A program made the translations under genes and the position numbers. Under the pieces are notes generated by a model. The model was not told the origin of the DNA and ran no database searches. It worked only from the letters and a program-made list of their open reading frames with translations. Below, one piece after another: positions 1 through 527 of a DNA stretch of 527 bases. Each line of letters opens with the position of its first letter. Position 1 is the first letter of the stretch. The stretch comes from Escherichia coli (lineage in GTDB: Bacteria > Pseudomonadota > Gammaproteobacteria > Enterobacterales > Enterobacteriaceae): assembly GCF_003334335.1 (NCBI RefSeq), contig NZ_QOWQ01000175.1, one strand, 5' to 3'.

Positions 1-527
1 GAATTTATCCGTGAAGGTGTGGGCGTTCATGCGTTTAACGGCGAAATCTTTGTGCAGCCGGTCTGGGATACGGAGAGTACGCAACTGTTTCGTACGCGTT
101 TTAAAGCCGTGAGTCCGAAACGGGTGGACACGCCAGGACACGGTATCGGGAACCGTTTTCTGCGGGCCGGTGTGGAGGTTGATCGATATGGCCGTGCCGT
201 TGCGTACCATATCTGTGAGGATGATTTTCCTCGCTCCGGGAGTGGACGATGGGAACGGATCCCGCGTGAACTACCCACCGGGCGTCCGGCCATGCTGCAT
301 ATTTTCGAGCCGGTGGAGGACGGGCAGACCCGTGGAGCCAATCAGTTTTACAGCGTTATGGAACGGCTGAAGATGCTGGATTCCCTGCAGGCAACACAGC
401 TTCAGTCGGCCATAGTGAAGGCGATGTATGCAGCGACGATTGAAAGTGACCTTGATACCGAAAAGGCCTTTGAATATATCGCCGGTGCGCCGCAGGGGCA
501 GAAGGATAATCCGCTTATTAATATTCT
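1..527 (+). CDS. Phage portal protein, lambda (gpB) family; internal fragment, 5' and 3' ends both outside the window
   Basis: Seen in sequence: frame +1 is open across the whole window (175 codons, no stop), whereas the other frames give only short ORFs. By recall, the translation aligns colinearly and without gaps to the central region of bacteriophage lambda portal protein gpB. Near-identical blocks include REGV..HAFNGE.FVQ..WDT....LFRT.F..VSPKR, IPRELP.GR, and F.H.FEPVEDGQTRGAN.FYSVME..KMLD.LQ.TQLQSAIVKAMYAATIES.LDT. GC content is roughly 50-55 percent, compatible with an enterobacterial lambdoid phage. The track did not list this frame because it contains neither a start nor a stop codon in the window. 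Confidence 0.93.

Follow-up and report, generated by a model that had tools for sequence, protein, structure and literature searches.

The window, which denotes the whole stretch of DNA analysed here, has a length of 527 nt and a G+C content of ~56%, and the entire window is filled by a genuine fragment of a portal gene. The + strand carries this fragment at positions 1..527 in frame +1, which is free of stops across all 175 of its 175 codons, while the remaining five frames hold between 1 and 13 stops. The fragment is internal and corresponds to codons 133–307 of the 530 codons of a phage 21-type portal gene (gpB homologue), with the start codon and the stop codon both located outside the window. 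A 104-aa antisense ORF and two short + strand ORFs were also considered, and were rejected as chance ORFs since the frames elsewhere contain stops and these ORFs overlap the well-supported coding frame. The Rfam search of the window (E ≤ 1) returned zero matches, and no tandem repeats were reported in it by Tandem Repeats Finder.

The complete gene was observed in public chromosomes. In Escherichia coli ATCC 11775 the window lies at 20001–20527 of the extracted locus (L001) and is 100% identical to the corresponding part of the CDS of WP_000831818.1, annotated as 'phage portal protein', which spans 19605–21197. This CDS has a length of 1593 bp and encodes 530 aa, and the identical protein, WP_000831818.1, was obtained from ATCC 11775, S88, ST648 and YJ4. 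A full-length, uninterrupted portal ORF of ~530 aa is thus present in the identical loci, and the same frame is open throughout the window.

The family of the encoded protein was assigned with profiles and with a solved structure. Positions 10..489 (+), corresponding to residues 4–163 of the translation, match the Pfam profile Phage_portal_2 (PF05136, the lambda family) over model positions 104–258 of 354, with an E-value of 3.2e-38 and 132 bits, and the translation also matches PHROG 21 'portal protein' (E 7e-61). Against gpB, the lambda portal whose structure has been solved (PDB 8k38, with six related entries), the translation aligns ungapped with an E-value of 8e-64, with 100 of 165 residues (61%) identical to residues 137–301 of 8k38_A. 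The best-conserved run in comparison with lambda gpB (PVEDGQTRGAN...TQLQSAIVKAMYAATIES) is encoded by nucleotides ~307–456 of the window, and a hand count gives 48 identities among the 63 residues that make up the later half of the alignment. The full 530-aa portal covers model positions 1–457 of 457 of the equivalog TIGR01539 portal_lambda and scores 698.1 bits against a cut-off of 172.7. Judged by these profile matches, with the curated threshold passed, the encoded protein is a lambda-family portal (PF05136/TIGR01539).

In lambda, twelve portal subunits make a ring at one vertex of the capsid. In concert with the C/Nu3 protease–scaffold and the major capsid protein E, this ring nucleates the prohead. 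It is also the docking site of the Nu1/A terminase, the enzyme that nicks cosN and pumps the DNA in, and the tail is joined after W and FII have bound to the ring. With 61% identity to lambda gpB, the protein encoded in the window may be expected to form the same dodecameric ring at the unique capsid vertex, and it would, as in lambda, act in prohead nucleation, terminase docking and W/FII-dependent tail joining, a function to which homology points.

The head-morphogenesis module around the portal gene

The flanks of 100%-identical windows were read over ±20 kb in four public chromosomes, namely ATCC 11775 (L001), S88 (L006), ST648 (L007) and YJ4 (L008), and two further contexts were provided by phage PhiR12_1 (99.4% identity to the window) and phage 21 (95.3%), so that the six contexts read are all loci other than the window's own contig. 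A first-pass annotation of the window had proposed that a portal gene here predicts a surrounding phage structural region, with terminase and W upstream and protease/scaffold, D and E downstream. All six contexts bear this out, each of them containing a complete lambda-like head module in the gene order Nu1-A-W-portal-C/Nu3-D-E-FI-FII, in which the W-like gene encodes 68 aa. The lambda tail row continues in five of the six loci, and the phage 21 locus, as fetched, ends at the start of U. The late operon reads cos-Nu1-A-W-B-C/Nu3-D-E-FI-FII-Z-U-V-G-T-H-M-L-K-I-J-lom-stf-tfa.

In the ATCC 11775 locus, the terminase small subunit (Nu1, L001 16970–17518) and large subunit (A, 17490–19418) lie upstream of the portal, and a W-like head–tail joining protein of 68 aa (19402–19608) lies directly 5′ of the portal CDS. 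Directly 3′ of the portal is an S49 peptidase (the protease/scaffold C/Nu3, 21187–22692), which is followed by the decoration protein, the major capsid protein, FI, FII, Z, U, V, G, T and the tape measure, and then by M, L, K, I, J, Lom, a tail fibre and a tail fibre assembly gene. The expected neighbours were recognized both by annotation and by PHROG profiles in this locus, where eight neighbours of the portal matched PHROGs 57, 15, 75, 53, 49, 2353, 92 and 82 with E-values from ~3e-29 down to 0; the functions represented are terminase small subunit, terminase large subunit, head–tail adaptor, head maturation protease, head decoration, major head protein, FI chaperone and head closure protein. 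In the PhiR12_1 record the genes are themselves named Nu1, A, W, B, C/Nu3, D and E. The 12-nt lambda cohesive-end sequence GGGCGGCGACCT was found at L001 16783, which is 187 bp before the Nu1 start at 16970, and is likewise present in L005 and L006, while cosN and cosB are annotated in the phage 21 locus. Frameshifts are annotated in the terminase large subunit of S88 and in the protease of ST648, and these could be either assembly errors or real decay.

The module as a whole is of the phage 21 type (96.6% nucleotide identity over 7.5 kb) and not that of lambda itself, with which the window shares 61% of its amino acids, so that the lambdoid assignment of the first-pass annotation is refined. 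The examination of about 20 kb on either side that it had suggested revealed terminase, protease/scaffold, capsid and tail genes in the four exact-match chromosomes, and the integrase and att sites that it had named were both present in ATCC 11775.

The ompW prophage of ATCC 11775 and its variable regions

The element of ATCC 11775 is a ~47.1-kb prophage in the 3′ end of ompW (NZ_CP033092.2, ~2,684,027–2,731,107), since the att repeat and the alignment with an empty site define its host and phage arms. One end of the prophage carries dicB, an exonuclease, an excisionase and an integrase, with an intact ompW directly adjoining, and the opposite end shows a 126-bp ompW 3′ fragment beyond the tail fibre genes (tfa), beside yciE. 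A direct att repeat of 121 bp occupies NZ_CP033092.2 2683907–2684027 and 2730987–2731107 (~11908–12028 in L003 and ~4988–5108 in L002), and its two copies are 81% identical between the ends. Alignment with the empty K-12 site revealed that the tail-side copy is the original 3′ end of the host ompW, running into yciE, whereas the int-side copy tracks the host ompW until a core of ~30 bp, CAGTsTGGTACATGGATATyGATACCAC, beyond which it gives way to a diverged 3′ end brought by the phage. This substitute 3′ end restores a full-length host ompW. The same alignment places the crossover within the ~30-bp core, and the prophage was inserted into the 3′ end of ompW by a lambda-type tyrosine integrase, with the substitute 3′ end keeping the host gene intact. 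The ompW insertion was established for ATCC 11775 only; the near-identity of the S88 copy covers the 40-kb locus and stops short of the junctions.

The early region of the ATCC 11775 prophage, upstream of the head genes, contains a cI-like repressor, cro, replication genes, hokD, RusA, a Q-like antiterminator, three tRNAs and the lysis genes. The three tRNA genes (Ile, Arg, Arg) lie at L001 11648–11897, flanked by the Q-like antiterminator/DNA methyltransferase on one side and by the lysis genes on the other, and two tRNAs (Ile, Arg) were observed in the equivalent position in ST648 and YJ4. Qin-type early genes were also found in the ompW prophage (L001 518–1054 and 7122–7277; L002 582–958); ydfA, ydfB, ydfC, dicB, ydfD and hokD are genes known from the Qin cryptic prophage of K-12. 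Such Qin-type genes illustrate how mosaic early regions stand alongside a conserved head module. The cI-like repressor, labelled 'LexA family protein', is annotated with 112 aa (1347–1685), although the ORF is open for 212 aa (L001 1347–1985, minus strand, ATG at 1985). A truncated repressor in ATCC 11775 was therefore rejected, as the short annotation looks like a miscalled start codon, and the additional residues at the N-terminus look like a helix-turn-helix for DNA binding.

The ATCC 11775 and S88 copies are 99.3–99.9% identical and share two lesions in comparison with PhiR12_1. The endolysin gene (L001 14277–14811, and the same positions in L006) carries a +1 frameshift in a G-run at L001 ~14430, and the gene of the gpM homologue, a tail-tip protein (L001 30080–30349, and the same positions in L006), carries a premature stop, W89*, at L001 ~30347. 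Both lesions are probably real because they are common to two independently sequenced strains, and with a frameshifted endolysin and a gpM that is cut short, the prophage of ATCC 11775 and S88 is probably defective. In ST648 and YJ4, on the other hand, both proteins are full-length, the endolysin at 177 aa and gpM at 109 aa, and the early and lysis regions that accompany this portal and head module are of a different make. As the first-pass annotation had stated, 527 nt do not suffice to tell an intact prophage from a cryptic one: the same window occurs in the lesion-bearing copies and in copies with the two checked genes intact. The inducibility of the copy from which the window comes would be expected to vary with the strain.

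The slot between Rz and cos also differs in cargo among the strains (L007 14931–16560 in ST648, L008 14930–16559 in YJ4, and the equivalent L001 15882–16583 in ATCC 11775). ST648 and YJ4 carry two convergent genes there, encoding one protein of the sce7726 family and one of the 'beta family', and searches against PADLOC matched this pair to the models cll (E 4e-31) and PD-Lambda-2_C (E 3.5e-32), plus beta. On account of these matches, the pair is a candidate for anti-phage defence cargo. The ATCC 11775 slot contains DUF1398 and YnfO genes and gave no match in the PADLOC search.

ATCC 11775 retains cos and an unbroken set of Nu1-to-E head genes, but its copy and that of S88 both have an inactivated endolysin and a truncated gpM, and this combination prompts the idea that the prophage is a retained, domesticated element, for example a donor of capsid and packaging functions for cos-type satellites, as opposed to a product of mere decay. 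We regard this idea as distinctly far-fetched. Were it to hold, it might possibly extend to APEC O1, whose window is 100% identical.

Occurrence of the window and relation to known phages

The occurrence of the window was assessed by megablast against 5426 complete E. coli genomes. A total of 1862 genomes (1866 records) contained it at 2982 places, 2975 of them chromosomal, and at least 80% of the window was held by 1860 of the 5426 genomes. The number of matching places per genome has a median of 2 and a maximum of 5, and identity of at least 99% was observed in 209 E. coli records. All 20 matches listed are 100% identical to the window and annotated as 'phage portal protein', and they include ATCC 11775, S88, APEC O1, ST648 and YJ4. 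Most genomes, ATCC 11775 (NZ_CP033092.2) with its second place included, match the window more than once; a single chromosome therefore houses several lambdoid prophages whose portal genes are related, and these prophages have the opportunity to recombine with one another.

Among deposited phage genomes, 19 matches were obtained with 95–99.4% identity, all of them Escherichia phages. The closest are those of the PhiR12 series at 99.4%, with phage 21 at 95.3%, and no deposited phage record is 100% identical to the window. PhiR12_1 differs from the window by three changes, all three synonymous, and its record gives E. coli K-12 MG1655 as the host. That the records of the PhiR12 series name such a laboratory host is an indirect hint that infectious particles may be released; a literature search for a description of the PhiR12 phages found no paper. 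Lambda itself is absent from the megablast phage matches, being too diverged in DNA to show in such a search. In addition, seven RefSeq E. coli places and ten PLSDB records (H70–H79) labelled 'plasmid' match at 95–99.8%, such as CP061244.1 (1.41 Mb) and CP088669.1 (730 kb). Most of these records are 170 kb to 1.4 Mb in size and non-mobilizable, and therefore they look like mislabelled pieces of chromosome and are probably not phage-plasmids.

We are highly confident that the window belongs to the gpB-type portal gene of a lambdoid siphovirus resembling phage 21, whose genome almost certainly resides as a prophage in an E. coli chromosome. Many degraded lambdoid remnants are found in E. coli genomes, and the window might instead be a stray piece of portal gene in a cryptic prophage so decayed that its terminase and capsid neighbours are gone. 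Partial head modules do occur in a few records, for instance H65, which retains 57% of the module in two pieces, and two of the 1866 E. coli records cover less than 80% of the window. However, the full module, with terminase and capsid genes, accompanies the portal in all four exact-match chromosomal contexts, the frame of the window is unbroken and does not differ from the one in full-length copies, and at least 80% of the 7.2-kb Nu1-to-E module is present in 1871 genomes as compared with 1860 genomes holding the window. By these counts the portal almost never occurs without its module, and an isolated fragment is extremely improbable, although the counts were made per genome and not per place, so that with 2982 places and a median of 2 per genome some copies could sit in degraded remnants.

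An origin from a free, virion-derived phage genome would agree with the 19 deposited phages at 95–99.4%, PhiR12_1 and phage 21 among them, and was permitted by the wording 'phage or prophage' in the first-pass annotation. The best phage record nevertheless reaches only 99.4%, against 100% in all 20 chromosomes listed and at least 99% in 209 records, which makes such an origin very unlikely. The seven RefSeq places and ten PLSDB records would likewise allow the gene to reside on a plasmid or phage-plasmid; but none of the records labelled 'plasmid' is 100% identical to the window, most have the appearance of mislabelled chromosome, and 2975 of the 2982 places are chromosomal, so that the chance of a plasmid location is close to nil.

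For annotation, it is safe to call the window a fragment of a lambdoid portal gene of the phage 21 type and to use it as an indicator that prophage structural genes lie around it. It belongs to common mobile DNA, a close copy being present in about a third of complete E. coli genomes, and is of little importance beyond annotation. Its head module is highly conserved and is shared by prophages that differ in their early and lysis regions and in their state of decay; therefore, a portal fragment of this kind predicts its immediate neighbours well, but not the insertion site, the cargo or the inducibility of the prophage.

The closest described system is phage 21 (GenBank M81255, OL657228), in which the portal is gene 4 in the order cos-1-2-3-4-5/6-7-8. 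The window is 95.3% identical to phage 21 at the nucleotide level, with 25 nucleotide and 5 amino-acid differences. Third codon positions account for 20 of these 25 changes, and the codons affected comprise 17 synonymous and 5 non-synonymous ones, a pattern typical for a constrained coding sequence. From cos to FI the identity to phage 21 is 96.6% across 7.55 kb, and in the stretch from cos to Nu1, 187 of 200 bases are identical to the cosN/cosB region of phage 21, with an identical cohesive end. The sizes of the portal (1593 bp), protease/scaffold (1506 bp), decoration (348 bp) and major capsid (1029 bp) genes are common to both. From FII on, the identity drops to ~82–83%. The exact-match prophages have mosaic early, immunity and lysis regions, and the comparison with phage 21 covers cos to U only. 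Lambda belongs to the same family (PF05136, TIGR01539) and has the identical gene order Nu1-A-W-B-C-Nu3-D-E and the same 12-nt cos end, and serves as the paradigm for structure and function, but it shares only 61% amino-acid identity in the window.

With respect to the insertion site, ompW is a known integration hotspot (PMC3603311), and lambda-like ompW prophages ('PPompW') with a 121-bp attL/attR have been described (PMC8112680), the published examples being from STEC O145:H28, with internal attB sites and effector loci (PMC8112680). The ATCC 11775 prophage resembles them in its insertion into the 3′ end of ompW, its 121-bp att, its lambda-like structural region and the integrase beside ompW, and it matches the PPompW class. 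Nothing observed here departs from described systems.
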